Positions 4,765-23,648 of a DNA stretch of 25,596 nt are shown piece after piece. Location: the IMG/VR virus record IMGVR_UViG_3300025528_000383. One strand, 5' to 3'. Under the pieces are notes generated by a model. It did not search any database. It was not told the origin of the DNA and worked only from the letters and a program-made list of their open reading frames with translations. Position 1 is the first letter of the stretch, and each line of letters opens with the position of its first letter. This DNA is from a virus. Made by a program: the position numbers and the translations under genes.

Positions 4765-4794
4765 ATGCTATGTGAAAATCAGTCGATTCATTAT
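4765..4794 (-). promoter_or_regulatory. SigE-like promoter for the pilin2-prgI-virB4 operon
   Basis: ATAATG-N16-CATAGCAT, 34 nt upstream of ATG 4730 and just after a terminator. Confidence 0.6.
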
Positions 4795-4826
4795 CTCCTA
4801 GCGGTCGGAATCCGTCGGGAGCAGAC

Positions 4827-4867
4827 AAAAAAAACAACCCCTCGGCGATGAGCCAGGAGAGGTTGTT
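4827..4867 (-). terminator. Intrinsic terminator after pilin paralog 1
   Basis: AACAACCTCTC...GAGGGGTTGTT stem followed by a T run on the minus strand. Confidence 0.7.
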
Positions 4868-4875
4868 CAATTCGA

Positions 4876-5346
4876 TTACCCAAGAGCGTTGAAGAAGATA
4901 CCGACGATGAACGTGACCGCACCCAATCCGGCCGCCGCCAGACCTGAGAAGACTAGGCCTACAATGACTCGGCTGCGTTCGCTTGGGTTTGCCGAGGTGG
5001 CCCCCAACTTCATAAAGTTGATGATGAAAAAGAGAATCATGGACACGGCACCAACCCCGGAAACGCCAGCGATAAAGAAGCGGTATTTGGCAATCAATTT
5101 CGTCCACGCTGATCCATCGGAACCTGTCGCCAGGTCGCCTGAATACGTCACCTTTCCGCTTGAATCCACCGTTACCTTTGAACCTGAGATTCCGGTGTCT
5201 TCTTTTTCCTTTTTTTTTGAACTGGCGGCATAGACTTCCACGGGGTTCGTCACCGCCGTGACGCCCATCGTCATGACAAAGGCGGCCAAAAGACCATACA
5301 GAGTCTTTTTCAAGGCGATTGGTTTTGCGAGAACCATGGTCATCAC
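4876..5346 (-). CDS. VirB2/TrbC-like pilin paralog 1
   Basis: Long signal peptide ending VYA, YRFFIAGVSGVGAVSMILFFI-LGATSANPSER-TM2; RBS GAAAGGGG; heads the tra cluster. Confidence 0.65.
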   Translation of the reverse strand: MMTMVLAKPIALKKTLYGLLAAFVMTMGVTAVTNPVEVYAASSKKKEKEDTGISGSKVTVDSSGKVTYSGDLATGSDGSAWTKLIAKYRFFIAGVSGVGAVSMILFFIINFMKLGATSANPSERSRVIVGLVFSGLAAAGLGAVTFIVGIFFNALG

Positions 5347-5397
5347 TTCCCCTTTCTTTATTGGTTGTTAATGAATGATCCAGCTTCTTTTCCTCTT

Positions 5398-5427
5398 AGT
5401 CTATTAAAATCCGCAGTATTTGATTAC
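5398..5427 (-). promoter_or_regulatory. Degenerate SigE-like promoter for pilin 1
   Basis: GTAATC-N16-AATAGACT, same spacing as the exact copies, 51 nt before the ATG. Confidence 0.4.
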
Positions 5428-5610
5428 CGACGGAGGGTGATTGACTGGTTGAATCTGGTAGAATTAAGATGCTCTAGATCAAGATTTCCTAGGCTTTTTA
5501 CTTTGTTTTTCTTACCCCCTTCTTTAAAGCATAAATAACAGAAAACAGCATATACATCACCCTTGACCTTGCATTCTATTCCCCCTGCAAGGGGTTTATA
5601 ATTCCATCCA

Positions 5611-5751
5611 TTATACCCCGGCATAAAAAAAGACCGCCCGTAGGCGACCGAGAAAAGAATTCAAATCCACAGTCAAACCGTCCAATTCCTTTTCGACCCA
5701 TTCCTTCATCTTGTTTAGATTAATTTGGTCCATCTTTGTTAACTCCAACAT
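5611..5751 (-). CDS. Small 46-aa ORF, possibly a truncated gene
   Basis: MLELTKMDQINLNKMKEWVEKELDGLTVDLNSFLGRLRAVFFYAGV; strong RBS GGAGGAGG and CATAGCAT promoter; last codons run through a terminator hairpin. Confidence 0.45.
   Translation of the reverse strand: MLELTKMDQINLNKMKEWVEKELDGLTVDLNSFLGRLRAVFFYAGV
5624..5650 (-). terminator. Intrinsic terminator
   Basis: GGTCGCC-tacg-GGCGGTC followed by TTTTTTT on the minus strand. Confidence 0.7.
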
Positions 5752-5817
5752 ACTTTAACCCTCCTCCATAAAAAATGCCTTCTTTTTTGGCATTGCCTGT
5801 TGTCTTGTAATCGTTTC

Positions 5818-5847
5818 ATGCTATGGCAATGGAATATGGTCTATCAC
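5818..5847 (-). promoter_or_regulatory. SigE-like promoter
   Basis: GTGATA-N16-CATAGCAT, 66 nt before ATG 5751. Confidence 0.65.
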
Positions 5848-5849
5848 GC

Positions 5850-5873
5850 AAAAAAGGCGGGAAGAGCCCGCCC
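5850..5873 (-). terminator. Intrinsic terminator of the primase 1 operon
   Basis: GGCGGG-ctctt-CCCGCC-TTTTTT. Confidence 0.75.
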
Positions 5874-5898
5874 CAGATTTGTTTGTGTTTTTATATGT

Positions 5899-6075
5899 TC
5901 AGTCAAACAACGACTCTTCAGCACTAGCGAGGTTGACCGGTACCTGATTTATTTCGACCGGTGCCATTTCTCGCCATGGGAAGGCGTATCCGAACAAGAA
6001 GGCGATATATAGAATCAACCCACCGAAGATGACGACCCCTATACTTGTCCGCTTGATCATTTGCTTCATGTTCAT
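5899..6075 (-). CDS. 58-aa single-pass membrane protein
   Basis: Below the ORF-track cutoff: MNMKQMIKRTSIGVVIFGGLILYIAFLFGYAFPWREMAPVEINQVPVNLASAEESLFD; ATGA overlap with the primase stop, RBS GGGAGG, ends before a terminator. Confidence 0.7.
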   Translation of the reverse strand: MNMKQMIKRTSIGVVIFGGLILYIAFLFGYAFPWREMAPVEINQVPVNLASAEESLFD

Positions 6076-7487
6076 CGGCTTCTCCCTCCCATTTCTCCAA
6101 CCGGCACAAACAAGGGCCGTATATCTTTTTCAAATGCTTCTTGGATGAACTCCTTGTCGATTTTCACGATCGGTTCATCATGCTGTTTTTCCAATGTAGC
6201 GATCATCTTATCATAAGCACGGATGTACGATTTATAATCAACACGCTTCACTTCGGAAAAAAATCCATTCAGCACAAGGTCGTCAAACCCCTTCCCGAAT
6301 CCCGGATCCCACCAATAATAGTAAAAATCCAGATTGCGATAGGTGTGCTTCAAGGCGAGGACCATCTCCCGGAAGGCAAAGTAGACGTTCGGGTTCTCGC
6401 ACATGTCGCTGTCGAAGAAGACGTGGACGGAGAGCACCGCCTGACCTTTTTCCGCTTCCAGATAGTCAAAGATTCGTTCGAGCTTCCCCCGCCAGCTCTG
6501 CACCCCTTGCAGGGAGACGCTGATAGCGTGATAAACCTTTGCCAACTGTTCCGATTTAAAGACCCCTTCCGTGATGTAGAGATCATGGGGGCGGTCGAGC
6601 CGTTCGGGATAGGAGACGTGAACGGGAGCTCCGCTTCCCGTTCCAAATCCCATTCCCTCCTTCTCATTAGCGAAACTAGAAGAGAACCAGATGTAGCGTT
6701 GTTCTCCTTTTTTCGCCTGATCCCGGCGGATCTGGATGCCACAAATCCGTCCTCGTTCATCCCGGATGGGGATGCCAATGCCCTTGTGGCCGACAAACGT
6801 CATCCCGCCGTTTTTCTCCAGATAATAAAAGCCCGGCACTTCCTTCAGTACGTCTTCGTCGTAGCCGTGGCGTTCCTTTAGTGCTTTCAAAAATTCCCGC
6901 ATGAAATAATTCGTCCGTCTGGGCATGGTGAAATACCCGCCCCGCTCGATGTCTTCCGGGGAAAGTTTCCGCTCTCGAAGAAGATAATCCCGATGTTTTT
7001 CAGAGAGTCTTCCGTTCTTTTTGAGCAACCCTTCACCTTCTGAAAAGACGGTATAAACCGCATGGAGAATATCCGGATCGGCCACCGGCTCCTCGACGCC
7101 GTCCACGTAGATATCGGTGTAGGTTCTCGGCGGGGCTTGAATGTCCCGATTTTCCAACGTTCCCTTTTTATAGAATTCCACCACCTGTTCAGGAGTCACG
7201 ATGCCAAATTGCAAAGCCAGCTTCCAGACGGCGGGTTTGAACCCGATTCCTTCCTGTTTTTGCACGAAATCGATACCATCCCCGCTCGCTCCACAGGAAA
7301 AGCAATGATAAGTGTTTTTCTTTTTATACAGGCTGAAGCTGCCAGCGTGGCGGTCGTTGTGGAACGGGCAGAACCCTTTGGGGACGTGGTACAGCCCCTC
7401 CACGATGTCCCGAATTGGGATCAGTCGCACCATCTCCAGAACCTGATGGAAAAACTGTCCCCGGTCGGACACATGCGGTTGGGGCAT
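6072..7487 (-). CDS. CHC2 zinc-finger/TOPRIM (DUF3854-like) DNA primase-like protein, paralog 1
   Basis: CPFHND...YHCFSCGASGDGI zinc finger; GIGIPIRDERGRICGIQIR; TOPRIM YITEG, FFDSD, KGFDD; start moved to ATG 7487 (RBS GAAGGTGA), 471 aa. Confidence 0.85.
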   Translation of the reverse strand: MPQPHVSDRGQFFHQVLEMVRLIPIRDIVEGLYHVPKGFCPFHNDRHAGSFSLYKKKNTYHCFSCGASGDGIDFVQKQEGIGFKPAVWKLALQFGIVTPEQVVEFYKKGTLENRDIQAPPRTYTDIYVDGVEEPVADPDILHAVYTVFSEGEGLLKKNGRLSEKHRDYLLRERKLSPEDIERGGYFTMPRRTNYFMREFLKALKERHGYDEDVLKEVPGFYYLEKNGGMTFVGHKGIGIPIRDERGRICGIQIRRDQAKKGEQRYIWFSSSFANEKEGMGFGTGSGAPVHVSYPERLDRPHDLYITEGVFKSEQLAKVYHAISVSLQGVQSWRGKLERIFDYLEAEKGQAVLSVHVFFDSDMCENPNVYFAFREMVLALKHTYRNLDFYYYWWDPGFGKGFDDLVLNGFFSEVKRVDYKSYIRAYDKMIATLEKQHDEPIVKIDKEFIQEAFEKDIRPLFVPVGEMGGRSR

Positions 7488-7514
7488 GAGATTCACCTTC
7501 TTTCCATAAATTCC

Positions 7515-7560
7515 ATTAACTATAGTCAAATTATAATTCATAGAGCTGCCAATAGTCAAC
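7515..7560 (-). promoter_or_regulatory. Sigma-A promoter of primase 1 flanked by two palindromic operators
   Basis: TTGACT-N18-TATAAT (7559..7530); operators ATTAACTATAGTCAAA (7515-7530) and GCTGCCAATAGTCAAC (7545-7560). Confidence 0.7.
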
Positions 7561-7844
7561 GAAACGTGGGGATAGACCCCGTGCGGCAACCGTTCCCTCT
7601 AATTCCCTTCGCCCTTCTTGGCTATATTGAAGAGAAGCAAAAAAACAAGAAATTTACAAAGGTCGCCGTTGCCCAGGGGTTGCTCATCGCCCATATCCTG
7701 AAACACCAGGATTTAGAGGGTAAAGGCCACGTTGAAAACCAAACCGAAGCCCTTATGCGTCGGCTCGGCAATGTGAATTGGGGAGCCGACCAGGAGTATA
7801 TCCGGCGGAAACACTTTCTTTAAACCGGTTGGCTTTCCCACAAC

Positions 7845-7881
7845 AAAAAGCACCCGTCCCTTTGTGGGGACAGGTGCTTTC
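7845..7881. terminator. Probable bidirectional terminator
   Basis: AAAGCACC.GTCCC...GGGAC.GGTGCTTT inverted repeat with A/T flanks. Confidence 0.7.
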
Positions 7882-7884
7882 TCG

Positions 7885-8133: not shown

Positions 8134-8321
8134 TTTCTCTTCCTCCATAATATTTTAGTTCAGCAAAACAAAAATCCTTTGATTTCTGGTAGTCATGGTC
8201 TTGGGTATTCAGTCTTCCTGAAATTCTTTCAAAAATCGTAATGCCTTTTTCATTCCACCGTTCCTCCTTTTGAAATACATCGCCCAGAACCAGACGATAA
8301 CTATTTCCTTCCGTTCTTGAC

Positions 8322-8351
8322 ATTGTACTAAACAAAAATCTTCTTCATAAC
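8322..8351 (-). promoter_or_regulatory. Promoter cassette (degenerate SigE-like or weak sigma-A)
   Basis: GTTATG-N16-AGTACAAT; the -35 is identical to the primase 2 promoter; followed by a leader hairpin and TATTTCAAAAGGAGG. Confidence 0.45.
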
Positions 8352-8454: not shown

Positions 8455-8468
8455 ACCTTGGATTCCGT

Positions 8469-9166: not shown

Positions 9167-10582
9167 TCAGCCGGCATATACCTCCGGGAAGACTTCAACA
9201 AAGTAATGGTTTTTTACTTCCTCCTTCGGGATTTTTTGAGTCTTGCCATATTTTTTGGATAGTTTCTCAATCATCCGAGTATAAACAGTCTCGAACTTAT
9301 GAAAATCCACCCGGCGAATGGTATGCCCCATTCCGTTTTGGATGAGGTCGTCGATGCCTTTGCCATTTTTAATATCCCAAAGGGCCAAGTGAATCTTAAC
9401 CTCCGGAAATTCCTCTCGGATGAGAGCCGCCATGTTCTTAGCATGGTGGAAAACCTGTGGGTTCTCCGCCATGTCGGCGTCATATGCCACATAGATGTGT
9501 TCCAGTGGTGTGCCGGCCTTGAATCTGGCAAACTTCAGCTCCTTATTTATTTCTTTGAAGCTGCCAACACCGGCGACGGACAGACAAACGGCTCCAAAGG
9601 TTTTCGCCACGGCAACCGATTTGAAAAACCCTTCCGTGATGAACATCACGTTTGGATAGCGGTTTTCTGCCGGGTAGGAAACGTGAATCGGAGCCCCTGC
9701 CGCAGTCCCGAAGATGTAGGGGTTGTCGTCGTATGCAGCAAAACTGGATGAAAACCAAGTATACCGCTTCTTCTTTTCCCTTGCCGTGTCCCTACGGATC
9801 TGGATGCCGACGATTTCGCCCCGGGCATTCCGACTGGGTATCCCAATTCCTTTGTACTTGGCGAACGTGTAGCGGTATTCTTGTTCGCCGTTCTCCGGTT
9901 GGGAAGTGTCTAATTCCCAATCCGGACGTGTGTAGAACCCCGGTGTCCGTTTGAACACGTTCGGAGATACCCCGTACTCCCGACACCGATCCAAGAGATC
10001 GTCGAGAAACGCCTGGGTCGGTTCAGGAAAGGTGAAGAGCCCGTAATGTTCGATCTCTTCATCCGAAAGCCCCCGTTTCCGGAGGTAATCCCTATGTTCG
10101 TCCGAAAGGTCTACGCCCTCCAACATTAGCCGGTAGGCGATATCCAAGATGTACGGGATATCGATTTCCGTGAGCCCATTGGCTTTGCCCTGTTTCTTCG
10201 AGGTATCAGGGCTCACCACATGGACATCTATGTCGAAAATCTTCCCGCCGAAGTATTCTTCCGCCTGCTTTTCGCTGATGATTCCCTGATCAACAGCAAT
10301 CTTCAATACCGCAGGCTCGAAACTAATTTTGAATAAATCTTCGACAAACTGGATGCCATCCCCATATGCCCCACATGAGAAGCATTTGTAGATGCCCTTC
10401 CGATCTGAGATTTTGAAGTTTCCGGTCTCTCTGTCCCCGTGGAAAGGGCAGAGTCCATCAGCATCAGTAAAACGGTTCGGTTTCACCAGGATGTATTTCT
10501 CAAGGATCCGAGAAACGGGAAGTTTTTTCACCTCCTCCAGTACCCGAGAAAAAAATTCTCGTTTTCTTCCCTTCACATCCAT
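9167..10582 (-). CDS. CHC2 zinc-finger/TOPRIM (DUF3854-like) DNA primase-like protein, paralog 2
   Basis: CPFHGD...YKCFSCGAYGDGI; GIGIPSRNARGEIVGIQIR; FITEG, AYDAD, KGIDD; start moved to ATG 10582 (RBS AAAGGAGG), 471 aa. Confidence 0.85.
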   Translation of the reverse strand: MDVKGRKREFFSRVLEEVKKLPVSRILEKYILVKPNRFTDADGLCPFHGDRETGNFKISDRKGIYKCFSCGAYGDGIQFVEDLFKISFEPAVLKIAVDQGIISEKQAEEYFGGKIFDIDVHVVSPDTSKKQGKANGLTEIDIPYILDIAYRLMLEGVDLSDEHRDYLRKRGLSDEEIEHYGLFTFPEPTQAFLDDLLDRCREYGVSPNVFKRTPGFYTRPDWELDTSQPENGEQEYRYTFAKYKGIGIPSRNARGEIVGIQIRRDTAREKKKRYTWFSSSFAAYDDNPYIFGTAAGAPIHVSYPAENRYPNVMFITEGFFKSVAVAKTFGAVCLSVAGVGSFKEINKELKFARFKAGTPLEHIYVAYDADMAENPQVFHHAKNMAALIREEFPEVKIHLALWDIKNGKGIDDLIQNGMGHTIRRVDFHKFETVYTRMIEKLSKKYGKTQKIPKEEVKNHYFVEVFPEVYAG

Positions 10583-10651
10583 TCTTGCTCCTCCTTTTTG
10601 AAATAATTGCCCCGACGAGGGCAATGCCTTTCTTTTCCCATACTTCGTGAT

Positions 10652-10681
10652 ATGCTATGGTATCGCCAAAAGGTTCATAAC
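10652..10681 (-). promoter_or_regulatory. SigE-like promoter of primase 2
   Basis: GTTATG-N16-CATAGCAT, 69 nt before the ATG. Confidence 0.65.
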
Positions 10682-11281: not shown

Positions 11282-11401
11282 CTTAATCCTCCTTTTTAAA
11301 ATAAATTACCTTGGCACGGGCAATCCCTGTTTTAAACTTTCCCTTTATACTAGATGGACGGAAATGAATTATTCCATTACCGTTACCTTTCCCACGTTCT
11401 C

Positions 11402-11432
11402 ACTCTAACAAATACTATTTCCGATAGTCAAT
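11402..11432 (-). promoter_or_regulatory. Sigma-A promoter of ssb with operator over the -35
   Basis: TTGACT-N18-TAGAGT with extended TG; operator ATTTCCGATAGTCAAT at 11417-11432. Confidence 0.6.
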
Positions 11433-12185: not shown

Positions 12186-13256
12186 TCAGTTGACAAGAAC
12201 CGGCATCGCAAATTCGTCACTCACACCGGTGATGGATTCAAGCCATTTTTGGCTGTGGATGTCAAAAATGTTGAGACGGTTTTTGAAGTGGACATACAGA
12301 TAACCTTTGGAGGCGACGGTGGTATTCTGGTTGTACAAGATCCCGTCTTCCGTCAAAGGGATTTTCACCGGCTGGTTTTCGTTGCGGTTGAGGCGTCCAT
12401 TCTTCATTTTCCACTCGTTGATCAGGTGGTACGGATCGGTCCCATCCACGTATTGGACGGTATAGAAGGTTTTATCCCCCGAATCCGCCGGAATCAGGTT
12501 TGTATCAGCGGACAGATTTCCCTCCAATTCTGTGATCGACAAATCGCTCGGATTCAACGTCAGCAGGATGGAGTTACCAAGCCCACTCCCAAAACGGTTG
12601 TGAATCAAGATTTTGTCCTGAAAACGCGTGATGCAATCGGTCACATCCCCCAGGTCAATAGACGTTTCTTTTTTCGGGCTGAACAAGTGAAGCGTGGTTC
12701 CGGTCGCGTAGTATAGGTGTCCGTCAATAACGGCGTAATCACGGACGGAATCCGGGAGATTGAAGACCTTCGTGCTCCAATTCCCGCCGATTTGGTAATG
12801 GTAGGTGAGCTTCTGCCCTTCCTCTGAAAGGATGGCTACGTTCTTGCCGTCAGTTCGGAAACTTTCAGCCCCTTCCACGGAGATTTTAGCTATGTCGCCA
12901 TTGTTTTTGATTTTACCGTTTTGGAGAGATAGCTGATAAATGCGGGTTCCGTCGTAGGCGTACAAACCGTCATAGGAGGCGTTAGGGGTGTAGAGGTAAT
13001 TCCCGTTTGGGAGGGTAAAAGTCGAGGTCTTTTCCTTGGTCTTCGTGTCAATCACGGCCAGCGTTCCGTCTTCATTCGCCGAAATCACGGATTTGGCAAG
13101 CGTGTTTTTAGACGGTCCAAGTTTGAAAATGTCCCAACCGTCATGCGAAAGGAGAAAGTACAAAGCGATTCCGGCGGCTAAAAACAAGACGATCGACCCG
13201 GCCATGAGCAACTTGGTCCGGTGCTTTTGCAACTTGTATTTTAAATTGCCTGCCAC
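12186..13256 (-). CDS. Membrane-anchored extracellular beta-rich (beta-propeller-like) protein
   Basis: N-terminal TM segment then repeated short beta-strand motifs (LAVID, LYAYDG, LYYATG, LYVHF); GTG start at 13256 after RBS AAAGGAG (track start 13295). Confidence 0.7.
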   Translation of the reverse strand: MAGNLKYKLQKHRTKLLMAGSIVLFLAAGIALYFLLSHDGWDIFKLGPSKNTLAKSVISANEDGTLAVIDTKTKEKTSTFTLPNGNYLYTPNASYDGLYAYDGTRIYQLSLQNGKIKNNGDIAKISVEGAESFRTDGKNVAILSEEGQKLTYHYQIGGNWSTKVFNLPDSVRDYAVIDGHLYYATGTTLHLFSPKKETSIDLGDVTDCITRFQDKILIHNRFGSGLGNSILLTLNPSDLSITELEGNLSADTNLIPADSGDKTFYTVQYVDGTDPYHLINEWKMKNGRLNRNENQPVKIPLTEDGILYNQNTTVASKGYLYVHFKNRLNIFDIHSQKWLESITGVSDEFAMPVLVN

Positions 13257-13296
13257 TTTGGCAACTCTCCTTTCATAAAAAATTGTAGTTGTCATC

Positions 13297-13869
13297 CTAT
13301 GACCGTGGAACGGTTTTCATTCCATCCATCCTTACTCGTTTGGGTTCCCTACGGGCGATTTGCCGTTCGATATATTCCGGATGGCGGTTGTCCGCAAAAT
13401 GATCAGCTACCAGATCCAATCGAACTTTCGCGAACTCGGCCACTTCCTCAAAAAGATCTTCCATACGAACTTCAACCATGTAATATTCCTCGAAGTCGCG
13501 GAAAAAACCCTCCAAGCGGTATTCCATCCACTTTTGGTAAAATTCGTCGCAGTAGGTCTGGTGAAACCGCATGTCTTGTTTCCAAATTTCCCAAAGTTCA
13601 TGGTGCGGGTGTTCACGGAAATAGCGGTCGCCGTGGTGTAGAAAGGCTTCCCTGGCGAACCAGAGCGAAAATGTCCGGATGAACGCCCGGAACGAAGTGG
13701 CACGGGAATCATCAAATTCGATTAGGATGCCTTCGGGGAGCAGATGAAATTCATATTTCCCTTTGTCGAGGTACATCATCGACTGGAGACGGTCGATGTC
13801 GGCACTCCGGTTGATGTTGAGTAACAGTTTATCCAATGGGAACACCTTCTTTCTGTGAAGGATTGACAA
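13297..13869 (-). CDS. Hypothetical protein (190 aa)
   Basis: TTG start with RBS TAGGAG; closely coupled to the next gene. Confidence 0.7.
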   Translation of the reverse strand: MSILHRKKVFPLDKLLLNINRSADIDRLQSMMYLDKGKYEFHLLPEGILIEFDDSRATSFRAFIRTFSLWFAREAFLHHGDRYFREHPHHELWEIWKQDMRFHQTYCDEFYQKWMEYRLEGFFRDFEEYYMVEVRMEDLFEEVAEFAKVRLDLVADHFADNRHPEYIERQIARREPKRVRMDGMKTVPRS

Positions 13870-14020: not shown

Positions 14021-16228
14021 TTAACGAAACCATTTCCCCGCCGAACCCCGCTTCAATTGCGGGATGTCCCAAACGGAAAAGGTCTGGCCGTTTACGGAAA
14101 TTTCCAATCCGCTTCCTTCTTTCACCAGGTACGCTTGTTCCACCGAATCGTCCGCCTTCAGGACAAGACTTTGCACACCCCGTGCGGTTTTTGACTGCAA
14201 TGGGAACACATCCACTTTCATCCGCCCAACATAACCTCGTTTTGTGACAAGAACCAGTTGTTCGTCTCCGTCGGTTTCGGCCACAAGCAGTATCTCGTCC
14301 CCATTCTGCAATCCGGTAGCGGCCATTTTCAGGCGGGTAGAGACAAGTTCGACACCCTTCGTCCGCTTGCAAAGCCCTGAACGGGTGACAAACAGAAATT
14401 CCTTGCCGGAAAGATGGCTTTTCGCCGCCACATACACCGGGTATTCGCTCCGTTCCAACTTCGCTAGGGCGTGAAGGGTTACTCCCTTCTCTTTTTTCTT
14501 CACCTTGGGCACGGCGGAGAGTTTCACCTGGTGGGCATTCCCCCGGTTGGTGAATACCACGAGCCGATCGTCGTCTTTCGTGCGAAAGGCGAATTTGCTA
14601 TCCTCCGGCGGTTCGGCCTGGCCGCCATCCAGCGTACGGCAATAACCGAATCGATCCACCGAAACCCAAACATCTTCCGCCTTCTTCGTCTCCGTATAGC
14701 TGAGACGCTTCATTTCCTTCAAAACGGTCTTCCTCTGGAAGGCGTAGGCGTTTTTCATTTTCAGGTGTTCTTTGTGGATCTCCTTCACAAGCTCTCGATC
14801 GTCTTCGAGAATCTTACGGGCCTTTTCCAATTCCTTTTCCAACTGCTCCCTCTCTTTTTGGAGAGCTTCTACTTCGATTCCACCAAGCCGTTGCAGTTTC
14901 ATATCCAGAATGGCCTTCGCTTGGTGTTCAGTAAATCGGAACCCTTTCGCTATCTTCTCATGCTTTTTCAGGCGGAATGAGATACCGTTCGTGTCCCCGT
15001 TCATGAGGCATCGTTTCATCTGGACGACCGACTTCGATCCCCGGATGGCCTCTATGATGGTGTCAATGACCGACACCGCCGCCATCAAACCGTCCAAAAC
15101 TTCCTTCCTCTCCATCCCCTTTTCGTACAGATAGCGGTACTTCCGCCTTGTCACATCTTTCTGGAAGTCGAGGTACAGCCGGAAATACTCTTTCAACCCG
15201 AGCTGCCTCGGCCGCCCGTCCACGATGGCAAGGAATTGGTAGGTTTCGTTCGCTTCTATTTTCGTCTTGACATAGAGCTTCTCCAAAAATTTCGGAATGT
15301 CCGTCCCCTTCTTCACTTCAAGAACGATGCGGATCCCGTCCTTCGAAGACTCATCTCTCACATCTGTAACCTCGTTTAGTTTCTTCTCTACGACCATTTG
15401 GGCGAGATCAGACACCAGTTTGGCTTTATTCCCAGATAAAGGATAGGGGATTTCCGTAATCACGACGTTGGTTTTGCCGTAAGCGGCGGGTTCAACCTCA
15501 ATTTTTGGACGGATGATCGCCTTTGCCTCACCGGTGCGGTAAAATTCCTGAAATTCCTTTGGGTTGGCGAGAATTCCACCGGTCGGAAAATCCGGTCCTG
15601 GGATGACTTCGAGAAGATCCTCCAGCGAAGCATCCGGTTGGTTTAAAAAAAGTAGAAACGCCTCCATCACTTCGCCGAAATTATGAGGCGGTATGTTCGA
15701 CCGCATGCCGACGGCGATCCCGATTGAGCCATTAACGAGAAGTTGTGGAAACTTGGCGGGAAGCACGACGGGCTCCCGTTCCGTTCCGTCATAGTTATCC
15801 CGGAAATCAACCACATTCTTATCCAGATCGGCCAAAAGCTCTAAGGCAATCGGGGCAAGCCGGGCTTCCGTATACCGCATGGCGGCGGCCGAATCCCCAT
15901 CGATGGAACCAAAATTACCGTGCCCGTCCACAAGTGGAACGTTCAGCCGGAAATCTTGGGCGAGCCGCACCATCGTATCGTAAACCGCCGCATCTCCGTG
16001 CGGGTGATATTTCCCGATGATTTCACCGACGATCCTCGCCGATTTCTTGTAAGGAGTACCTGGCAAAATACCAAGGTTTTTCATAGCATAAAGTACTCTC
16101 CGATGTACAGGTTTGAAGCCATCCCGCACATCCGGAAGAGCCCGGTCCACAATGACGGAGACCGCATAATCCCGGAATGATTTTTTCATTTCCTCTTCAT
16201 ATGTGATAGTTTCGATGCGTTCTTCCAT
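14021..16228 (-). CDS. gyrA: Type IIA DNA topoisomerase subunit A (GyrA/ParC family; no GyrA-box, so topo IV-like)
   Basis: RALPDVRDGFKPVHRR, GKYHPHGD, catalytic AAMRY(119)TE, PGPDFPTGG; short beta-pinwheel CTD. The symbol is family-level; gyrA versus parC is unresolved. Confidence 0.92.
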   Translation of the reverse strand: MEERIETITYEEEMKKSFRDYAVSVIVDRALPDVRDGFKPVHRRVLYAMKNLGILPGTPYKKSARIVGEIIGKYHPHGDAAVYDTMVRLAQDFRLNVPLVDGHGNFGSIDGDSAAAMRYTEARLAPIALELLADLDKNVVDFRDNYDGTEREPVVLPAKFPQLLVNGSIGIAVGMRSNIPPHNFGEVMEAFLLFLNQPDASLEDLLEVIPGPDFPTGGILANPKEFQEFYRTGEAKAIIRPKIEVEPAAYGKTNVVITEIPYPLSGNKAKLVSDLAQMVVEKKLNEVTDVRDESSKDGIRIVLEVKKGTDIPKFLEKLYVKTKIEANETYQFLAIVDGRPRQLGLKEYFRLYLDFQKDVTRRKYRYLYEKGMERKEVLDGLMAAVSVIDTIIEAIRGSKSVVQMKRCLMNGDTNGISFRLKKHEKIAKGFRFTEHQAKAILDMKLQRLGGIEVEALQKEREQLEKELEKARKILEDDRELVKEIHKEHLKMKNAYAFQRKTVLKEMKRLSYTETKKAEDVWVSVDRFGYCRTLDGGQAEPPEDSKFAFRTKDDDRLVVFTNRGNAHQVKLSAVPKVKKKEKGVTLHALAKLERSEYPVYVAAKSHLSGKEFLFVTRSGLCKRTKGVELVSTRLKMAATGLQNGDEILLVAETDGDEQLVLVTKRGYVGRMKVDVFPLQSKTARGVQSLVLKADDSVEQAYLVKEGSGLEISVNGQTFSVWDIPQLKRGSAGKWFR

Positions 16229-16242
16229 CGCTTACACCTTCC

Positions 16243-18168
16243 TCACAAGTCCACGTTGGCGTTCGGGGCTTCCTGAATGATGAATTCTCGCCTTGGCTCC
16301 ACCTTCGCTCCCATGAGAAGAGTGGTAATGACATCCGCCTCCACGGCGTCTTCAATCTGAATCAGCCCAAGCCTTCTTGTTTTTGGATTCATAGTGGTTT
16401 CCCATAACTGTTCGGAACTCATCTCCCCCAGCCCCTTGTACCGCTGGATGTCCTTGACAACATGACGGCCATACTTTTCCCGAAGTCGATCCCTCTCCGC
16501 ATCAGAATAAGCATACACATACGGTGGAAGTCCCTTTTTCTTTTCCAGTTCGAGGCGATAAAGCGGTGGAATCGCCCGGTAGATATGACCTTTCAGGATA
16601 AGCTCCGGTGCATAGCGGTAAAACAAGGTGAGAAGGAGTGTTCGGATGTGACTTCCGTCCACATCGGCGTCCGTCATGATGATGATCTTGTCGTATTCGA
16701 GTTTTGAGAGGTCGAATTGGTCTCCAAAACCACAGCCCAACGCACTAAACAGAGTGGTGATCTCCACATTTTTAAGTGCACGGTCAATGGAGTTTTTCTC
16801 GATATTCAAAATCTTTCCACGGATTGGAAGGATCGCCTGAAAGTTACGGTCCCGGCCTTGCTTGGCGGTGCCGCCAGCCGAATCCCCTTCTACGATGAAC
16901 AGCTCCCGTTTCGACTTGTCCCGAGTCAGGCAACTAGCGAGCTTGCCGTTCGTCTGGAGTTGGATTTCTTTCGATTGTAGGTTAATCCTCGCCCGGTCTT
17001 CCGCCTTTCGTACTTTGAGGGCACGCTCGGCCTGTTCGACGATGTGTTTCAATTCATCCACATGACGATCGAAAAATCTCGCCCCTTCCCGGATAATGCA
17101 GTCTTCCACCGCCGATTTCGCATCGCTCGACCCGAGCCTCGCCTTCACCTGACCCTCATATTGCGGATCCGGGTGGCGGATGGAGATAACTGCGACCATC
17201 CCGCTGCGGATATCCCGACCGTCAAACGGCTCCTTGGCAAGCCTGAGTTCCTTTGCATATTGGTTTACAAGTTTTGTCCAGCCGGCCTTGAAGCCGGTGA
17301 CGTGCGTCCCACCTTCCACGGTGGCAATGTTGTTGCAATAGCTGATGATCTGCTCAGTGAATTCCCGGGTGTATTGGAGGGCAATGTCAATTTCGATTCC
17401 GTTCGACACCCCGGAAAACGAGATGATCTCTCCGGTCGCTTCCCGATCTGCGTTAAGCCTTTTGACAAGGCCTTCGATACCTCTTTCTTCGCAAAACCGG
17501 ACGGACTCCGCCGTGCGTTCATCAAAGAGCCACAAGATGAGCCCCTTGTTCAGGTAGGCGGTCTCTTGAAGGCGTTTCCGCACCGTCTCAAAAGAGAATT
17601 CGACGGTCTCAAAAATTGCCCTATCCGGTTTGAACCGAATCTTTGTCCCGGTGTGATCCGCTTTTCCAATCTCGGGAAGCGTCCCCTTTTGGGTGAGTTC
17701 GACCACGGGTTTTCCGCCGTTTTCGTAGCGGTCGTGATGCACCTTCCCTTCCCGATAGATTTCTACATCGAGCCATTCGGAAAGGGCGTTCACGACGGAA
17801 GCTCCCACGCCGTGGAGGCCGCCTGAAATTTTGTAGGTTGAGCGGTCGAACTTGCCCCCAGCATGGAGGGTGGTGAAGATGACCCGAGCGGTGGGGATTT
17901 TCGCCTGCGGGTGAATGTCGACGGGAATTCCCCGCCCGTTGTCCTCCACCGTGACGGAGCCGTCCTTGTGGAGGGTCACTTTGATTTCCGTACAGTACCC
18001 AGCCAGATGTTCGTCTATCGCATTGTCGAGGATCTCCCACACAAGGTGGTGCAAGCCTTTTGGACCGGTCGAGCCGATATACATGCCGGGACGGACCCTT
18101 ACAGCGTCGAGCCCCTCCAAGATGGTGATGGAAGACCCGTCATACCGTTTCGCTTCTTGAACAATCAC
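16243..18168 (-). CDS. gyrB: Type IIA DNA topoisomerase subunit B (GyrB/ParE family)
   Basis: VRVRPGMYIG, EILDNAIDE, DNGRGIP, GGLHGVG, EGDSAGG, PIRGKILN, MTDADVDGSHI, QRYKGLGEM. The symbol is family-level. Confidence 0.94.
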   Translation of the reverse strand: MIVQEAKRYDGSSITILEGLDAVRVRPGMYIGSTGPKGLHHLVWEILDNAIDEHLAGYCTEIKVTLHKDGSVTVEDNGRGIPVDIHPQAKIPTARVIFTTLHAGGKFDRSTYKISGGLHGVGASVVNALSEWLDVEIYREGKVHHDRYENGGKPVVELTQKGTLPEIGKADHTGTKIRFKPDRAIFETVEFSFETVRKRLQETAYLNKGLILWLFDERTAESVRFCEERGIEGLVKRLNADREATGEIISFSGVSNGIEIDIALQYTREFTEQIISYCNNIATVEGGTHVTGFKAGWTKLVNQYAKELRLAKEPFDGRDIRSGMVAVISIRHPDPQYEGQVKARLGSSDAKSAVEDCIIREGARFFDRHVDELKHIVEQAERALKVRKAEDRARINLQSKEIQLQTNGKLASCLTRDKSKRELFIVEGDSAGGTAKQGRDRNFQAILPIRGKILNIEKNSIDRALKNVEITTLFSALGCGFGDQFDLSKLEYDKIIIMTDADVDGSHIRTLLLTLFYRYAPELILKGHIYRAIPPLYRLELEKKKGLPPYVYAYSDAERDRLREKYGRHVVKDIQRYKGLGEMSSEQLWETTMNPKTRRLGLIQIEDAVEADVITTLLMGAKVEPRREFIIQEAPNANVDL

Positions 18169-19296: not shown

Positions 19297-19384
19297 ATTG
19301 TATGATTACAATTGCCTATAGTCAATAAAATAATGCTTTCTGCCTTCGTTCGTTATTGATATTACCTATAGGCAATAGTATTAT
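19297..19384. promoter_or_regulatory. Divergent sigma-A promoters, each with a palindromic operator
   Basis: Minus: TTGACT-N17-TACAAT (19325..19297) with ATTGCCTATAGTCAAT at 19311-19326. Plus: TTGATA-N17-TATTAT (19356..19384) with ATTACCTATAGGCAAT at 19361-19376. Confidence 0.75.
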
Positions 19385-19488
19385 TAAGAAAAGAATATAA
19401 TTCTGGAAAGGGTTTCTCTCCCTTTCGATTCTCAAGTGAGTCGGTATTTCTTAAAAGAACTTTACATCCTTTTAAAGGAGAGATGTGT

Positions 19489-20097
19489 ATGGTTAAATCC
19501 AGTGAACCCCGATACGAAAATTTTCAAGTGTATCGGGTGGACGGGAAAAACAAGTTTCTCGAAATCCTGTCCAGAAGTTTTGAGATCGGTAAAGTCATAT
19601 TCAACTTTGTTGAGTATGACGATACCAAAGCCGCAGGAAGCCGAATCACCCAACAAGTCATGATTTACATGGATTTTCCAAAGTTCAGAGTCTTCGCCCA
19701 TGACATGTTATCGGGTCGTTTCGCCAAAATGGCGGAAAATAAAAACAACCCGATCTTCCAAGACTTGACGGGGACCTCTTCAGAACGGCTTGCCGCTCAA
19801 AACCGGGCAAGGGAAGACGGGAAAGCGGAATCCCGTAAACTGACTCTTAGTCCTGCCGCAAAAGGCTTCTTCCTCACTGCTGAAGCCGGGCCTGGGGAAG
19901 AGTCGGAAACGGGGTTAATCAAACCTACCGGTAATGTGGAAAGACGTGTGTCCATTTTGCTTGATCCGGACCATGCCAAGGAGCTGGTACTCACTACCCT
20001 GGCGGCTATGGACGCTTATGAAACCGCCAAGGAAACCGTACGCCAGTTCGAAGCCATCCGGAAAGCCCGACTCAACCCGTCCGGGAAGACGGCTTGA
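19489..20097 (+). CDS. Hypothetical protein, possible Whirly/PC4-like ssDNA-binding fold
   Basis: RBS AAAGGAG 8 nt before ATG 19489; 202 aa with two beta-meander plus helix units. Confidence 0.7.
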   Translation: MVKSSEPRYENFQVYRVDGKNKFLEILSRSFEIGKVIFNFVEYDDTKAAGSRITQQVMIYMDFPKFRVFAHDMLSGRFAKMAENKNNPIFQDLTGTSSERLAAQNRAREDGKAESRKLTLSPAAKGFFLTAEAGPGEESETGLIKPTGNVERRVSILLDPDHAKELVLTTLAAMDAYETAKETVRQFEAIRKARLNPSGKTA

Positions 20098-20413: not shown

Positions 20414-20447
20414 GAGGCGATTTAAAAAACGGAAAGGATGATTGTAC

Positions 20448-20801: not shown

Positions 20802-20861
20802 TATCTTTACGAACAGAACTGTTAATGTGTGGTTCGTAAGCGATTCAAAGGAGGCAATATC

Positions 20862-21071: not shown

Positions 21072-21088
21072 GAAAAAAAGTAAAAACA

Positions 21089-21127
21089 ATGGTGTTCCTT
21101 TGGAAACTGGGAACGCCATCTTTTTTT
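21089..21127 (+). terminator. Intrinsic terminator
   Basis: ATGGTGTTCC...GGAACGCCAT-CTTTTTTT. Confidence 0.75.
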
Positions 21128-21141
21128 GAAAATTGCCTAGT

Positions 21142-21191
21142 AAAAAGCATAGATAAAGGCGTTTCACCGCAAAGGATGGAACGCCTTTATC
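21142..21191 (-). terminator. Hairpin/terminator downstream of the sigma gene
   Basis: GATAAAGGCGTT...AACGCCTTTATC 12-bp perfect stem. Confidence 0.6.
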
Positions 21192-21286
21192 AGTTGGAAT
21201 TCGCAATATAGGATAAGTTCGGTTCCATCCGTAGCGGAGTGGATGGAAGACTCGTGTGAAGATTTACTCGTTTGGGGATTTAGGGT

Positions 21287-21916
21287 TCAGGAGGCATATC
21301 GATCGAAGTGTTCCTCGAATAGCTCAATGTCATCTTCGTTTTCACTCATCAAGAACTTCTTAATCTTCTTCATGCAATTCTTTTGGATCTTGGAGACATT
21401 GGCCTGCGACATATTGATTTCAGCGGCGATCTCCTTCTGTGTTTTAAATTCGCATCCGTTCAATCCGTAGCGGTGGTTGATGATGTATTGCTCCAGCTCG
21501 GAAAGTTGACTCACCGCTCGCAGAATCACCTCGTGATTCTCCTTTCGGACAAGCAGTTCGCTAACCTCTTTTGCTTCATCACTTTTGTCGGACAGGATGT
21601 TGTAGAGTTCGAAGTCGTTCCCGTTCTTGTCCGTGGATAACACGAGGTTATAGGAGACATTGTGATCAGATTGTCTTCGTTCTTTCCGGAGGAAAAACCG
21701 CACCTCGTTCTTCATGCAATTGACGGCGTAAGTGGAAAACTTTGCTCCCCGAGCTTTATCGAAGGAGTTTAGGGCTTTCGTGAAACCAAACATCGCCGCC
21801 CCATAGAGGTCGTCGTAGTCGATGCGGGTGTTTCGAAACTTGTTGGCCACGAAATGAACGAGCTGCAAATTCTCCTCCGCCATCCGATTTTTTTCTTCTT
21901 CGGTCAAAAGCGGCAT
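21287..21916 (-). CDS. Sigma-70 family RNA polymerase sigma factor, sporulation (SigE/SigK)-like, with no pro-sequence
   Basis: Region 2 ENLQLVHFVANKF, DDL...GFTKALNSFD..GAKFSTYAVNCMKNEVRFFLRK; LSTDKNGNDFELYNIL linker; region 4 RYGLNG..KTQKEIA..INMSQANVSKI; RBS AAAGGGGTGA. Confidence 0.9.
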   Translation of the reverse strand: MPLLTEEEKNRMAEENLQLVHFVANKFRNTRIDYDDLYGAAMFGFTKALNSFDKARGAKFSTYAVNCMKNEVRFFLRKERRQSDHNVSYNLVLSTDKNGNDFELYNILSDKSDEAKEVSELLVRKENHEVILRAVSQLSELEQYIINHRYGLNGCEFKTQKEIAAEINMSQANVSKIQKNCMKKIKKFLMSENEDDIELFEEHFDRYAS

Positions 21917-21933
21917 CGGCTCACCCCTTTACG

Positions 21934-21949
21934 GTTGACTATAGGTTAT
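21934..21949 (-). promoter_or_regulatory. Palindromic operator just upstream of the sigma gene RBS
   Basis: ATAACCTATAGTCAAC (minus strand) matches the 8-copy consensus. Confidence 0.6.
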
Positions 21950-22170
21950 GGTACATTTTCATCATAAGAATTATTCCTTCCCTTCTCTCGTTTTTTCGGT
22001 CCAAGACCGTCCGACATCATTTAAACCAGTTGTAACCCACACGTTATTAGGGTTTCACGCACAAAAAAATAGCAGGCTCCAGATCCAGAGCCTTTGCCGC
22101 CTTATTGTCAATAGGAGTCTTTGTTGTTATAGCGAACCTTCCCCTGGTTTAACCGGAAAACAGGATAAAC

Positions 22171-22194
22171 AAAAGGAGCCTTTAGGCTCCCTTT
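22171..22194. terminator. Terminator hairpin, repeat copy A
   Basis: AAAAGGAGCC-TTTA-GGCTCCCTTT. Confidence 0.65.
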
Positions 22195-22394
22195 CATAAC
22201 TCATCTGACAAATCTATTACTTTTTTTACAAACCACAATTCCCCTCTATCAACAGCCACAAGTCTAAATCCTTTTTTTTGGAGATATAGTATCGCATCTG
22301 GGCCATTTTCGAAAACTTTTGATTCAAACCGTTCTTTTGTATAGATGAATGTACCTCCATCATCATAAACTTTCGCATGAATATATTTCTCCAT
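22194..22394 (-). CDS. Hypothetical protein (66 aa)
   Basis: RBS AAAGGGAGG before ATG 22394; low GC; has its own promoter and terminator. Confidence 0.7.
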   Translation of the reverse strand: MEKYIHAKVYDDGGTFIYTKERFESKVFENGPDAILYLQKKGFRLVAVDRGELWFVKKVIDLSDEL

Positions 22395-22460
22395 ATAATC
22401 TTTCCTCCCTTTCAATTTCATTGCCTGAAAGGCAATCCCTCATTTTTTTTGATTCCTTCT

Positions 22461-22490
22461 ATGCTATGAAGTTGAGCTCCGGATCATCAC
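22461..22490 (-). promoter_or_regulatory. SigE-like promoter
   Basis: GTGATG-N16-CATAGCAT, 66 nt before the ATG. Confidence 0.65.
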
Positions 22491-22508
22491 CGGTGAACAA
22501 AGTGAAAT

Positions 22509-22535
22509 AAAAGGAGCCTATAGGCCCCTTTTTTT
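22509..22535. terminator. Terminator hairpin after the thioredoxin gene, repeat copy B
   Basis: AAAAGGAGCC-TATA-GGCCCCTTTT; 21/24 identical to 22171-22194. Confidence 0.65.
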
Positions 22536-22560
22536 GTTATTGAGCGGAATGAACGGCGTG

Positions 22561-23469
22561 TCAGTTTTTGCTCTTCCCGCTTTCTTTCGATGATTTAGTC
22601 GCACTCGTGCCGTTATGATCCACACTGTCCTTGTCGATCGCATCTTTTTTGATCAGCTCTTTCTCGGAAATTTCCTTCCCGTTCTTATCCACTCGGACGG
22701 TGATGGTGCGAACATTATCGTAGAGCTTTTCGTCACCGAAGGCCGTCTCAATCATATCCTGGAACATGATGGCATCCTTAGAGCCAATATAGGTGTAACT
22801 GATTCGGCCAGTGTTATCAATAAACACGAAGGTCGGAACTTGTTCCACCATGTATTTGTCAATAGCGAGTTTTTTCAAACCCTTATTATCTTCCAGGCTC
22901 AATACCAGCTTTGGGCGTTTCAGATTGAGACTCTTATAGTAGGCGTTGATATCCTTGTTGCGATCGACTGGAAAAATCGTTACGAAGGTGATGTCGGGGT
23001 TCTTTTTTGCTAATTCAGACAAGATCGGGCTCATTTGTTGGCAGACCGAGCAGGTTGTTTTAGAGAAGGCGAGGATAACATTTCTCCCTTTCAGAGCTGA
23101 TAGTGAGAAATCTTTTCCGTCCATCGTTTTTCCGGAGATTTCCGCAGGTTTTTTCCCGATGTTTTTCAAAGCGTAATTCATTGAAAGCGTGTCCGGGAAG
23201 TTGACTTTGAACAAGTTCATCCCCTTTTCTGTATATTGGGCGAGGATTTCTTCGGGGGATTTCGAATAGTCGATGGTCACGGGTTTTTCCACAAATCGGT
23301 ACGATGCTTCATTTTTCTTGGCAGTCTTATGATGCACCGCTTTATCTGTATGGGCCGTCTCTTTTTCATGATGAGCCGCACCCCACAAGAATCCAAACGA
23401 TATCAAAGCCAAAACGACAAAAGCAACACCAATTCCTCCCAATACCCAGTTTTTCTTTTCTTTTTCCAC
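22561..23469 (-). CDS. Membrane-anchored TlpA/ResA-like thiol-disulfide oxidoreductase
   Basis: N-terminal TM anchor; DGKDFSLSALKGRNVILAF, CSVC active site, cis-Pro loop VPTFVFIDNTG; GTG start with RBS GGAGGTG. Confidence 0.85.
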   Translation of the reverse strand: MEKEKKNWVLGGIGVAFVVLALISFGFLWGAAHHEKETAHTDKAVHHKTAKKNEASYRFVEKPVTIDYSKSPEEILAQYTEKGMNLFKVNFPDTLSMNYALKNIGKKPAEISGKTMDGKDFSLSALKGRNVILAFSKTTCSVCQQMSPILSELAKKNPDITFVTIFPVDRNKDINAYYKSLNLKRPKLVLSLEDNKGLKKLAIDKYMVEQVPTFVFIDNTGRISYTYIGSKDAIMFQDMIETAFGDEKLYDNVRTITVRVDKNGKEISEKELIKKDAIDKDSVDHNGTSATKSSKESGKSKN

Positions 23470-23554
23470 GATCCGACACCTCCGTGGCTTTCGATTTGCA
23501 AAGACGTTCTTCTACGATCGGTTCTTCCGAATCGGACATTTTCTATAAGGAACT

Positions 23555-23611
23555 TTTGCCAATAGGCAATATTTCTTCCTATATTCTAACATACCGTTAA
23601 TTATAGTCAAT
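23555..23611 (-). promoter_or_regulatory. Sigma-A promoter of the thioredoxin gene with two operators
   Basis: TTGACT-N16-TAGAAT with extended TG (23610..23583); operators TTTGCCAATAGGCAAT (23555-23570) and GTTAATTATAGTCAAT (23596-23611). Confidence 0.62.
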
Positions 23612-23618
23612 GGTATTT

Positions 23619-23648
23619 GGTTTAAGTCCCTTTGTATTTGCATAGCAT
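23619..23648 (+). promoter_or_regulatory. SigE-like promoter (weak -35)
   Basis: GGTTTA-N16-CATAGCAT, 56 nt before ATG 23705. Confidence 0.5.

Follow-up and report, generated by a model that had tools for sequence, protein, structure and literature searches.

The window analyzed here, 25,596 nucleotides (nt) of the replicon catalogued as IMG/VR virus record IMGVR_UViG_3300025528_000383, is, judging from its sequence, part of a Bacillota megaplasmid; it represents 25.6 kb of that replicon, and all window counts given below cover that stretch. Its predicted proteins include VirB4, PrgI, two pilin-like and two primase-like proteins, SSB, the products of gyrA/gyrB, NucS, a TlpA-like protein, an A24 peptidase and a sigma factor. 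The sigma gene (21287..21916, minus strand) encodes a 209-amino-acid (aa) member of the sigma-70 family with regions 2 and 4 that shares 35% identity with SigE and 32% with SigK. Several intergenic regions of the window carry a two-box sequence with the layout of SigE promoters. The subject of this report is these sites and their relation to the sigma factor. They belong to a promoter-like class of a little-studied megaplasmid family, which on sequence grounds we regard as real and well supported.

The octamer CATAGCAT is present six times in exact form in the window, whereas 100 dinucleotide shuffles give a mean of 0.21 and a maximum of 2. Five intergenic copies had been picked out in a first-pass annotation and lie at the positions and on the strands it gave; the hexamers ATAATG, GTGATA, GTTATG, GTGATG and GGTTTA are found, as it claimed, exactly 16 nt upstream of their respective octamers, and start codons follow 34, 66, 69, 66 and 56 nt downstream. 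A sixth copy that it did not mention is antisense within gyrA (16082-16089, plus strand) and has no ATR at the -35 position. The composite pattern ATR-N16-CATAGSAT occurs five times where 0.05 copies are expected by chance. Individual sites were scored with a profile trained solely on 87 sites of pJeoMA (and circular for pJeoMA itself), a 603-kb Jeotgalibacillus plasmid whose sigma factor (JMA_41400) is 58% identical to that of the window. On the minus strand, ATAATG-N16-CATAGCAT (4765..4794; score 13.3) stands 34 nt before pilin 2 and heads the series pilin 2, PrgI, a 325-aa gene and VirB4; a hairpin with a T-run just upstream is seen by eye and is absent from the terminator scan list. GTGATA-N16-CATAGCAT (5818..5847; score 12.0) lies 66 nt before a 46-aa open reading frame (ORF; 5611-5751), with a terminator-like hairpin upstream (5874-5854), and GTTATG-N16-CATAGCAT (10652..10681; score 15.4) lies 69 nt before primase-like gene 2, again with a terminator-like hairpin upstream (10748-10724). 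GTGATG-N16-CATAGCAT (22461..22490; score 15.3), placed 66 nt ahead of an ORF of 66 aa (22194-22394) that lies upstream of the sigma gene, is flanked by terminator-like hairpins at 22532-22509 (upstream) and 22194-22171 (downstream). A further strong minus-strand site overlooked in the first-pass annotation, GGAATG-N16-CATAGGAT (13294..13323), precedes a 356-aa gene (GTG at 13256) by 37 nt, overlaps the end of the upstream ORF, and has a profile score of only 6.3 because of its flanks. The single plus-strand site, GGTTTA-N16-CATAGCAT (23619..23648; score 14.4), is placed 56 nt before orf171. All six have the -10 box and spacing of the SigE type; the -35 triplet is ATG in four, ATA in one and TTA in one.

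Two degenerate copies had also been proposed, and neither reaches the profile threshold. GTTATG-N16-AGTACAAT (8322..8351, minus strand; terminator-like hairpin 8454-8432 upstream), 61 nt before a 14-codon ORF, fits the broader pattern TDATR-N18-TAnnAK, while GTAATC-N16-AATAGACT (5398..5427, minus strand), 51 nt before pilin 1, only resembles the pilin site of pJeoMA, GTTATA-N16-AGTAGAGT. The broader pattern, which was defined after the data had been seen, has six matches in the window, all intergenic and on the coding strand, against 0.79 in shuffles; it adds ATTATA-N16-AATAGAAT (5573..5602, minus strand), which follows a terminator-like hairpin (5649-5632) and is a candidate promoter for pilin 1. 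In total, three strong and two degenerate sites sit just behind terminator-like hairpins. The 14-codon ORF (8216-8260) combines a strong ribosome-binding site with its promoter-like site and is perhaps a gene remnant. Recent copying of a cassette was considered as the source of the repeats and rejected, since the 16-nt spacers show no conservation even though the promoter and leader units can be aligned; selection acting on the boxes explains this better.

Matches to PF04542 (3.9e-14), PF04545 (2.5e-8) and TIGR02937 (100 bits; cut-off 42.9) place the window protein in the sigma-70 family. Its best-scoring models are those for SigK (138.9 against a cut-off of 252, and 128.9 against 298.65 bits) and SigE (NF006158, 126.9 against 339; TIGR02835, 119.4 against 348.6), yet all stay below 60% of their cut-offs. 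The earlier description of the ORF at 21287-21916 as a genuine, SigE/SigK-like factor with no pro-sequence was correct: residue 12 aligns with SigE residue 62, and about 50 N-terminal residues of SigE have no counterpart. The SigE pro-sequence is about 27 aa long. The spoIIGA-sigE-sigG context is likewise absent (compare B. velezensis), the neighbors of the gene being TlpA, orf171 and genes of the Tad pilus and type IV secretion system (T4SS). In a tree of 36 rows, with a midpoint root only, SigE, SigK and SigG form a clade of their own (97/91) with the plasmid sigmas outside it, and the window sigma groups with metagenomic relatives (94/96). By these comparisons the window sigma is neither SigE nor SigK. 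Its likeness to them lies in the overall identity, in Gln171, which aligns with Gln217 of SigE (region 4.2) rather than with an Arg as in SigK, and in the -35 AT(A/G) and -10 CATAnnnT layout of the sites (PMC3789822, in its available text). That text ties SigE Gln217 to the T of the -35 ATA motif, SigK having Arg and reading AC (PMC3789822), and Gln171 would fit the AT(G/A) observed at -35 here. The sites differ from SigE/SigK promoters in a -10 box that is mostly CATAG[CG]AT, in a spacer of 16 and in a TG before the -10 box.

The closest named protein to the window sigma comes from Caldibacillus debilis (95% identity, on a 223-kb contig), and relatives are also found on a 377-kb plasmid contig of Exiguobacterium (P0041), a genus not known to sporulate, and on a 500-kb Rossellomorea contig. 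A search of 72,556 plasmid records returned the sigma factor at 43-57% identity in 11 plasmids, the same 11 in which VirB4 exceeds 53% identity, with the next record falling to 33%. Nine of these were examined, H6 and H10 being left out: plasmids of Geobacillus, Brevibacillus, Aneurinibacillus, Paenibacillus (two), B. thuringiensis 407 (Bt407), Jeotgalibacillus (pJeoMA), C. difficile and C. perfringens, with sizes of 127-722 kb (301 kb for C. difficile) and hosts from Bacilli to Clostridia. The name pCDBI1 does not apply to the 301-kb C. difficile plasmid, as it denotes another plasmid, of 45-48 kb (PMC12291638). A Tad-pilus cluster and a divergent TlpA gene, followed by sigma, are found in this order in all nine. 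The sigma gene lies 1.9-5.4 kb before VirB4 in seven of the nine and is separated from it by about 90-110 kb in pJeoMA and the Bt407 plasmid; the window has 16 kb of other genes between sigma and the pilins. All nine plasmids are typed as non-mobilizable by PLSDB. They carry Tad and VirB4 genes, with relaxase and coupling-protein genes wherever the fetched stretch reached them. Further carriers of the sigma were sought in 104, 401 and 401 sampled genomes, which yielded only the already known Aneurinibacillus plasmid, and a genome scan with a single sigma query returned only SigK-like genes at 29-33% identity. The viral contigs searched contained no relative of the window sigma or VirB4, and a motif scan of viral contigs gave 32 single, scattered matches.

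The two-box motif is most abundant in pJeoMA, where, as in the other whole plasmids, genes were called with a simple ORF caller and start codons and distances are approximate. ATG-N16-CATAGSAT occurs 13 times there, each time before a start codon, and the reversed-pattern control gives none. Intergenic DNA makes up 16% of pJeoMA and holds 52 of its 71 CATAG[CG]AT octamers; 47 of the intergenic copies face a start within 250 nt and two do not. Among the 47 gene-facing sites AT is found at spacer 16 in 25, and at each of spacers 14, 15, 17 and 18 in at most three, while ATG at spacer 16 is found in 13 of the 47 and in none of the 24 other sites. Both CATAG[CG]AT octamers rank among the top strand-biased words of pJeoMA in de novo word counts. 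The resulting consensus is TTTaTr-N14-TG-CATAGSATA, with distances to the start clustering around 30 and 60 nt. Some orthologs keep the site: primase 2 in the window and pJeoMA, a YdjM-type gene in three plasmids, and orf171 in the window and in L030 and L032, two loci from metagenomes. Loci from metagenomes whose sigmas are 71% and 62% identical retain it before the orf171 ortholog.

Comparison with chromosomes concerns motif distribution and draws on chromosomes of other strains and one of the same strain. There are 35 copies of TGCATAGSATA in pJeoMA (control 1) and four (control 7) in a 5.5-Mb Bacillus record that was treated as chromosome; ATG-N16-CATAGSAT occurs three times in the latter (control 6). 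Elsewhere there are no copies of TGCATAGSATA in Bt407, two in Brevibacillus and one in an 807-kb B. velezensis record. The pJeoMA profile recovers four of the five previously noted window sites at a score of at least 12.5 (the fifth scores 12.0), together with the gyrA copy, and finds nothing in eight shuffles. It marks 40 of 1358 upstream regions in five other family plasmids versus 2 of 523 in two chromosome samples (p=3e-4, pooled over plasmids that are not independent). The scan covered 400 kb from each of three plasmids (502, 414 and 722 kb in size) and the remaining plasmids in full. Marked regions number 12 of 332 in Brevibacillus and 12 of 292 in P. thiaminolyticus (reverse control 0 in both) and 7 of 293 in Aneurinibacillus (reverse control 2), the two 400-kb chromosome samples giving 2 of 244 and 0 of 279. 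The -10 box of the other family plasmids is mostly CATAT[AG]AT. A distance of 18 nt from TTATR to TAnnA[TG] gives a sharp peak in pJeoMA (72 vs 3-17 at other distances), Bt407 (45 vs 4-21) and Brevibacillus (24 vs 1-8) and a weak one in P. thiaminolyticus (16 vs 4-11) and Geobacillus (4 vs 0-2); the chromosome samples contain four and three such pairs, with no peak. From the profile and spacing counts it therefore follows that the promoter-like class is family-wide, though strong only in pJeoMA and the window lineage. These distributions support the view that the motif behaves as a promoter class tied to the plasmid family and not to host chromosomes.

Leader elements are kept between the -10 box and the ribosome-binding site, and leader lengths cluster near 60 nt. 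Window leaders contain ATTGCC...GGCAAT hairpins (10606-10625, 11305-11324, 22420-22436 and 5774-5794), Bt407 leaders contain AAAACAGGTATTT about 35 nt before many starts, and pJeoMA leaders contain CAGTTGTGT...ACACTTTA. These conserved elements are possibly a shared control at the RNA level. Between about 124 and 178 kb, pJeoMA carries more than a dozen similar genes of 300-415 aa (L076-L078), some with hexapeptide-repeat matches, and most of them have their own promoter-like site and leader copy.

The sites are likely promoters and likely read by the plasmid sigma, and our preferred reading, held with reasonable but not strong confidence, is that this factor recognizes TTATR-N16-CATAG[CG]AT promoters across the replicon. 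Several observations weigh against it. The strict motif is present in 0-1 copies in each of eight other sigma-carrying family plasmids, the profile marks 9 of 355 regions in Bt407 (reverse control 5) and none of 86 in Geobacillus, and the TTATR-TAnnA[TG] spacing peak is missing from the Aneurinibacillus plasmid sample (12 vs 2-16). Upstream of the sigma gene itself the window has no sigma-type site (best score -1.0); sub-threshold CATAAAAT sites (10.6-11.7) precede the gene in three of nine relatives. The tree leaves the relation between the window and pJeoMA sigmas open, their sisterhood being unsupported, and co-variation of sigma and motif is therefore not established. pJeoMA also encodes a second sigma of 374 aa, in which DUF7226 is fused to regions 2 and 4 (L080:8638-9762, i.e. 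pJeoMA 208638-209762); it is 34% identical and carries the same SQANVSK helix. Finally, TAG[CG]AT with TTATRn 17 nt upstream also matches sigma-A geometry, and CATAGGAT is also found on a chromosome, 22 nt ahead of a gerPC-like gene.

The last point bears on an alternative in which host SigE (or SigK) reads the sites during sporulation, so that plasmid genes are timed to the mother-cell program and the plasmid sigma is incidental or modulating. This could be so because the layout is that of SigE promoters, with -35 ATA and a -10 box shared with SigK (PMC3789822, as far as its available text goes), and because of the CATAGGAT at the gerPC-like gene. In the wider pJeoMA set ATA (12) is about as frequent at -35 as ATG (11). 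The gerP genes are SigK targets, and a host mother-cell sigma may read the CATAGGAT -10 box. Against this, the motif is at background in the 5.5-Mb Bacillus record and in the 400-kb samples of two chromosomes, although the power of this test is low, the canonical SigE pattern itself giving 77 matches versus 62 in the control in a chromosome-size record, too weak to part hosts from controls. SigE promoters usually have a spacer of 16-18, whereas in the profile scan 43 sites have a spacer of 16, two of 17 and eight of 18. The strict motif is also lacking in eight plasmids whose genera are known as spore-formers. We consider this alternative unlikely, and the suggestion that transfer is timed to host SigE activity is disfavored by the chromosomal background and the dominance of spacer 16.

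To much the same low degree we credit a second possibility, namely that sigma-A reads the sites through a variant -35 (TTATRn, 17 nt, TAnnAT) and requires a plasmid-encoded activator to do so, the plasmid sigma doing something else. It arises because the geometry equals the 17-nt spacing of sigma-A promoters, and it is favored by TTATR and TTGAC having a common peak distance to TAnnA[TG] in the plasmids, by the mixed letters before TA in Bt407 (TC 12, AA 10, CA 6), where TATAAT is dominant, by TATAAT-like boxes in relatives at the orf171 position, and by the conserved leader words just downstream of the -10 box. However, pJeoMA has CA (21) or AA (19) before TA and GGAT/GAAT after it, and CATA is enriched there 52-68 nt from the start (14.5 vs 4.9 per 1000), a pattern typical of SigE/SigK; the same replicon also encodes a SigE-like sigma that has the corresponding Gln.

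A third proposal, closest to that of the first-pass annotation, makes the sigma a dedicated switch for the conjugation machinery. The link to conjugation genes stands in that the position of sigma between the Tad and T4SS clusters is conserved and a window site precedes pilin 2-PrgI-VirB4, with pilin 2 and PrgI not separated by any terminator in the scan; its exclusivity does not. Only this one of the six strong window sites heads transfer genes, the targets of the other five not being transfer genes. Among the 82 of 87 pJeoMA targets that were scanned, 63 have no Pfam match, and the 19 matched targets include HD-domain proteins, an RNA ligase, a methyltransferase, toxin-antitoxin parts, YdjM and the primase ortholog; a pilus or transfer match was obtained for one, TadB. 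The targets are thus mostly cargo genes without a family. In the nine related plasmids, each with a single pilin, strong sites were found neither before the pilin ahead of PrgI (0/9) nor before the M23 gene (0/9), while the first Tad gene has a site scoring at least 13 in four of nine, as does TadB in pJeoMA. A variant, TTAT[AGT]-N16-[AT]GTAnA[AG], precedes the M23 gene in five and the pilin in four of nine plasmids, and in Brevibacillus and P. thiaminolyticus its intergenic copies occur only before these two genes; it was, however, drawn up with the data already in view, and of six large plasmid samples only pJeoMA and Geobacillus show a peak in its spacing, the other four showing none. From the one window site in six, the absent pilin sites, the four Tad sites and the after-the-fact variant, we take the transfer link to be genuine in some places but not demonstrated in general, and a sigma dedicated to conjugation is improbable. 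Least probable is that a second sigma encoded elsewhere on the replicon reads the sites: pJeoMA, with by far the largest site set, does encode the 374-aa homolog, and only 25.6 kb of the window's own replicon is covered, but Brevibacillus and P. thiaminolyticus have (weaker) sites with one sigma homolog each (400/414 kb and 360/360 kb searched).

A second motif bears on how a plasmid sigma reading these promoters might itself be controlled. Palindromes of the TTGACTATAGTCAA type, consensus TTGAC(T/A)A(T/A)(A/T)GTCAA, occur in eight copies in the window against 0.18 by chance, and four of the eight lie on sigma-A-type TTGACT hexamers (-35). One box lies 18 nt before the sigma start codon (21935..21948). 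Two, on sigma-A-type -35 hexamers, occupy the divergent TlpA/orf171 gap (23556..23610), two the divergent nucS/orf204 gap (19312..19375), one a sigma-A-type -35 before ssb (11418..11431), and two, together with a sigma-A-type promoter (11/12), the region near the start of primase-like gene 1 (7516..7559). The palindromes are top words in pJeoMA, Bt407 and Brevibacillus and are found in 13-36% of upstream regions in six plasmids versus 1-2.5% in chromosomes (188 of about 523 regions in pJeoMA and 95 of 355 in Bt407). In pJeoMA the palindrome avoids sigma-type sites (of 523 regions, 87 have the sigma-type site, 188 the palindrome and 11 both; odds 0.21, p=2e-7) and probably marks a largely separate promoter set; together the two motifs account for 264 of 523 upstream regions, or about half. 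In each of the five plasmids scanned, the Tad operon has an XRE-type helix-turn-helix (HTH) gene in front of it, and it is our guess that its product binds the palindrome.

In the mechanism we envisage, a putative plasmid-encoded dimeric regulator, for which the conserved XRE-type HTH gene ahead of the Tad genes is one candidate, would bind the TTGACTATAGTCAA palindrome and through it set a first tier of expression as well as the level of sigma itself. The sigma would then direct host RNA polymerase to TTATR-N16-CATAG[CG]AT sites, so that palindrome/sigma-A genes would come first and sigma-dependent genes second. Since it has no pro-sequence, the sigma would be active once made, with control likely exerted at its synthesis. 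It would switch on a plasmid-wide gene set, consisting mostly of cargo genes, a primase and lineage-dependent pilus and transfer operons, here likely including the pilin-PrgI-VirB4 operon. Because the sigma gene lies beside transfer genes and matching sites precede many others, it likely runs a plasmid-wide program of which transfer is only one part. A bolder version, which we put forward tentatively and think less likely to be right than wrong, is that a 127-722 kb plasmid family of Bacilli and Clostridia turned a mother-cell-type sigma into a master switch, gated by a regulator with some hundred or more TTGACTATAGTCAA boxes as its targets and firing a program that includes the Tad-pilus and T4SS operons through strong sites or the variant AGTAnAAG -10 box, depending on lineage, with possible cross-talk with host sporulation; such cross-talk could occur since the promoters are SigE-like.

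A plasmid clpX gene lies directly 3' of sigma in five relatives and precedes the pilin in Bt407 (loci L007:12420-13607, L008, L010, L011, L013 and L014 taken together), and the window has none; control of sigma by proteolysis is possible. The sigma neighbor orf171 (23705..24220, plus strand) has no family and no clear fold match. It is kept beside sigma in seven of nine related plasmids with a promoter-like site at a fixed place. Its predicted model has a pLDDT (predicted local distance difference test) of 91.7, with the best structural match (Z 5.3) over a three-helix end and zincin-like fold hints (Atlas) below the bar; it is a candidate sigma partner or anti-sigma factor. The other conserved neighbor is the TlpA/thioredoxin-like gene (22561..23469, minus strand), and the A24 prepilin peptidase (25099..25596, minus strand) is the final Tad-cluster gene in relatives. 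orf204 (19483-20097) has no Pfam match and a sub-threshold Whirly hint; it is kept in four of five larger plasmid samples searched (best matches about 34-41%) and also lies beside sigma in metagenome loci.

Family searches identify PrgI, a conserved 325-aa gene and a VirB4-like ATPase at 1004..4264 (minus strand). Upstream lie two tandem pilin-like genes (4308-5346) where the nine relatives have one: T4SS pilin-like gene 2 (4308..4730, minus strand; weak PF18895 and NF045849 matches) is likely a tandem duplicate of gene 1 (4876..5346, minus strand), which is nearer to the relatives' single pilin, and the strong site falls between the two, ahead of the more diverged copy. Primase-like gene 2 (9167..10582, minus strand) has a CHC2 zinc finger and DUF3854/Toprim; the primase-like paralogs (6072-7589 and 9167-10582) and the plasmid gyrA/gyrB pair (14021-18168) are both also present in pJeoMA. 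A ribosome hibernation gene (RaiA/S30EA) lies between the coupling-protein and relaxase genes in three plasmids (L008:2266-2799, L014:5026-5559, L006:2651-3133), and in the Aneurinibacillus plasmid record the Tad-sigma-pilin block is directly duplicated over about 20 kb (L013:1-14200, 15000-34100), which is either real or an assembly artefact.

Orf7 of Tn916 resembles sigma region 4. Together with Orf8 of Tn916, Rap-Phr of pLS20, ImmR/ImmA of ICEBs1 and SetCD of SXT it exemplifies element-encoded switches of transfer genes, Orf7/Orf8 activating their own promoter with read-through into transfer genes; where the accessible portions of two conjugation reviews speak of sigma factors, they name only host sigma-H (phrI) and RpoS (ICEclc) and no element-encoded sigma (PMC5812530, PMC6540685). 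The action of these regulators is on transfer genes, whereas the class described here is replicon-wide. For a plasmid sigma with a plasmid-restricted regulon the precedent is SigN (ZpdN) of B. subtilis pBS32, described in the available text as having a largely plasmid-confined regulon that includes DNA-replication genes and an upstream repressor (PMC6751061), and the promoter-like class here is, by motif distribution, likewise confined to the plasmid. SigN is there presented as possibly a novel sigma subclass, LexA-repressed, self-activating and leading to cell death (PMC6751061). By description the window sigma differs in being SigE/SigK-like, in its conserved place next to Tad and T4SS genes in plasmids of both Bacilli and Clostridia and in having a plasmid-family palindrome upstream, and a self-activation site is not seen in the window. 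Sporulation-type sigmas are also carried by other mobile elements of Bacillota, the phages, and gp2.21 of SPO1 has been hypothesized to read sigK-like promoters on its own genome; in the portions available these phage sigmas are non-essential for infection where tested and are studied for their effects on host sporulation (PMC9429907).

Searches of the open-access literature brought up no paper describing the sigma family or one of the two motifs. For pJeoMA, the accessible report gives 77% of genes as of unknown function and calls the role of the plasmid unexplained (PMC5027565), and proteomics of Bt407 lists plasmid proteins, with nothing on the sigma in the available text (PMC12109265). RNA-seq results for J. 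malaysiensis do not list the plasmid sigma and, with the tag prefixes used, contain a single plasmid gene. The megaplasmid family is thus largely uncharacterized, and the two motifs provide a testable wiring diagram for J. malaysiensis D5, the cultured strain that carries pJeoMA. If the preferred reading is correct, the family would possess a plasmid-encoded sporulation-type sigma with a regulon of its own, which would offer a possible route to induce the transfer of plasmids thought to be immobile and would connect the plasmid with host sporulation.

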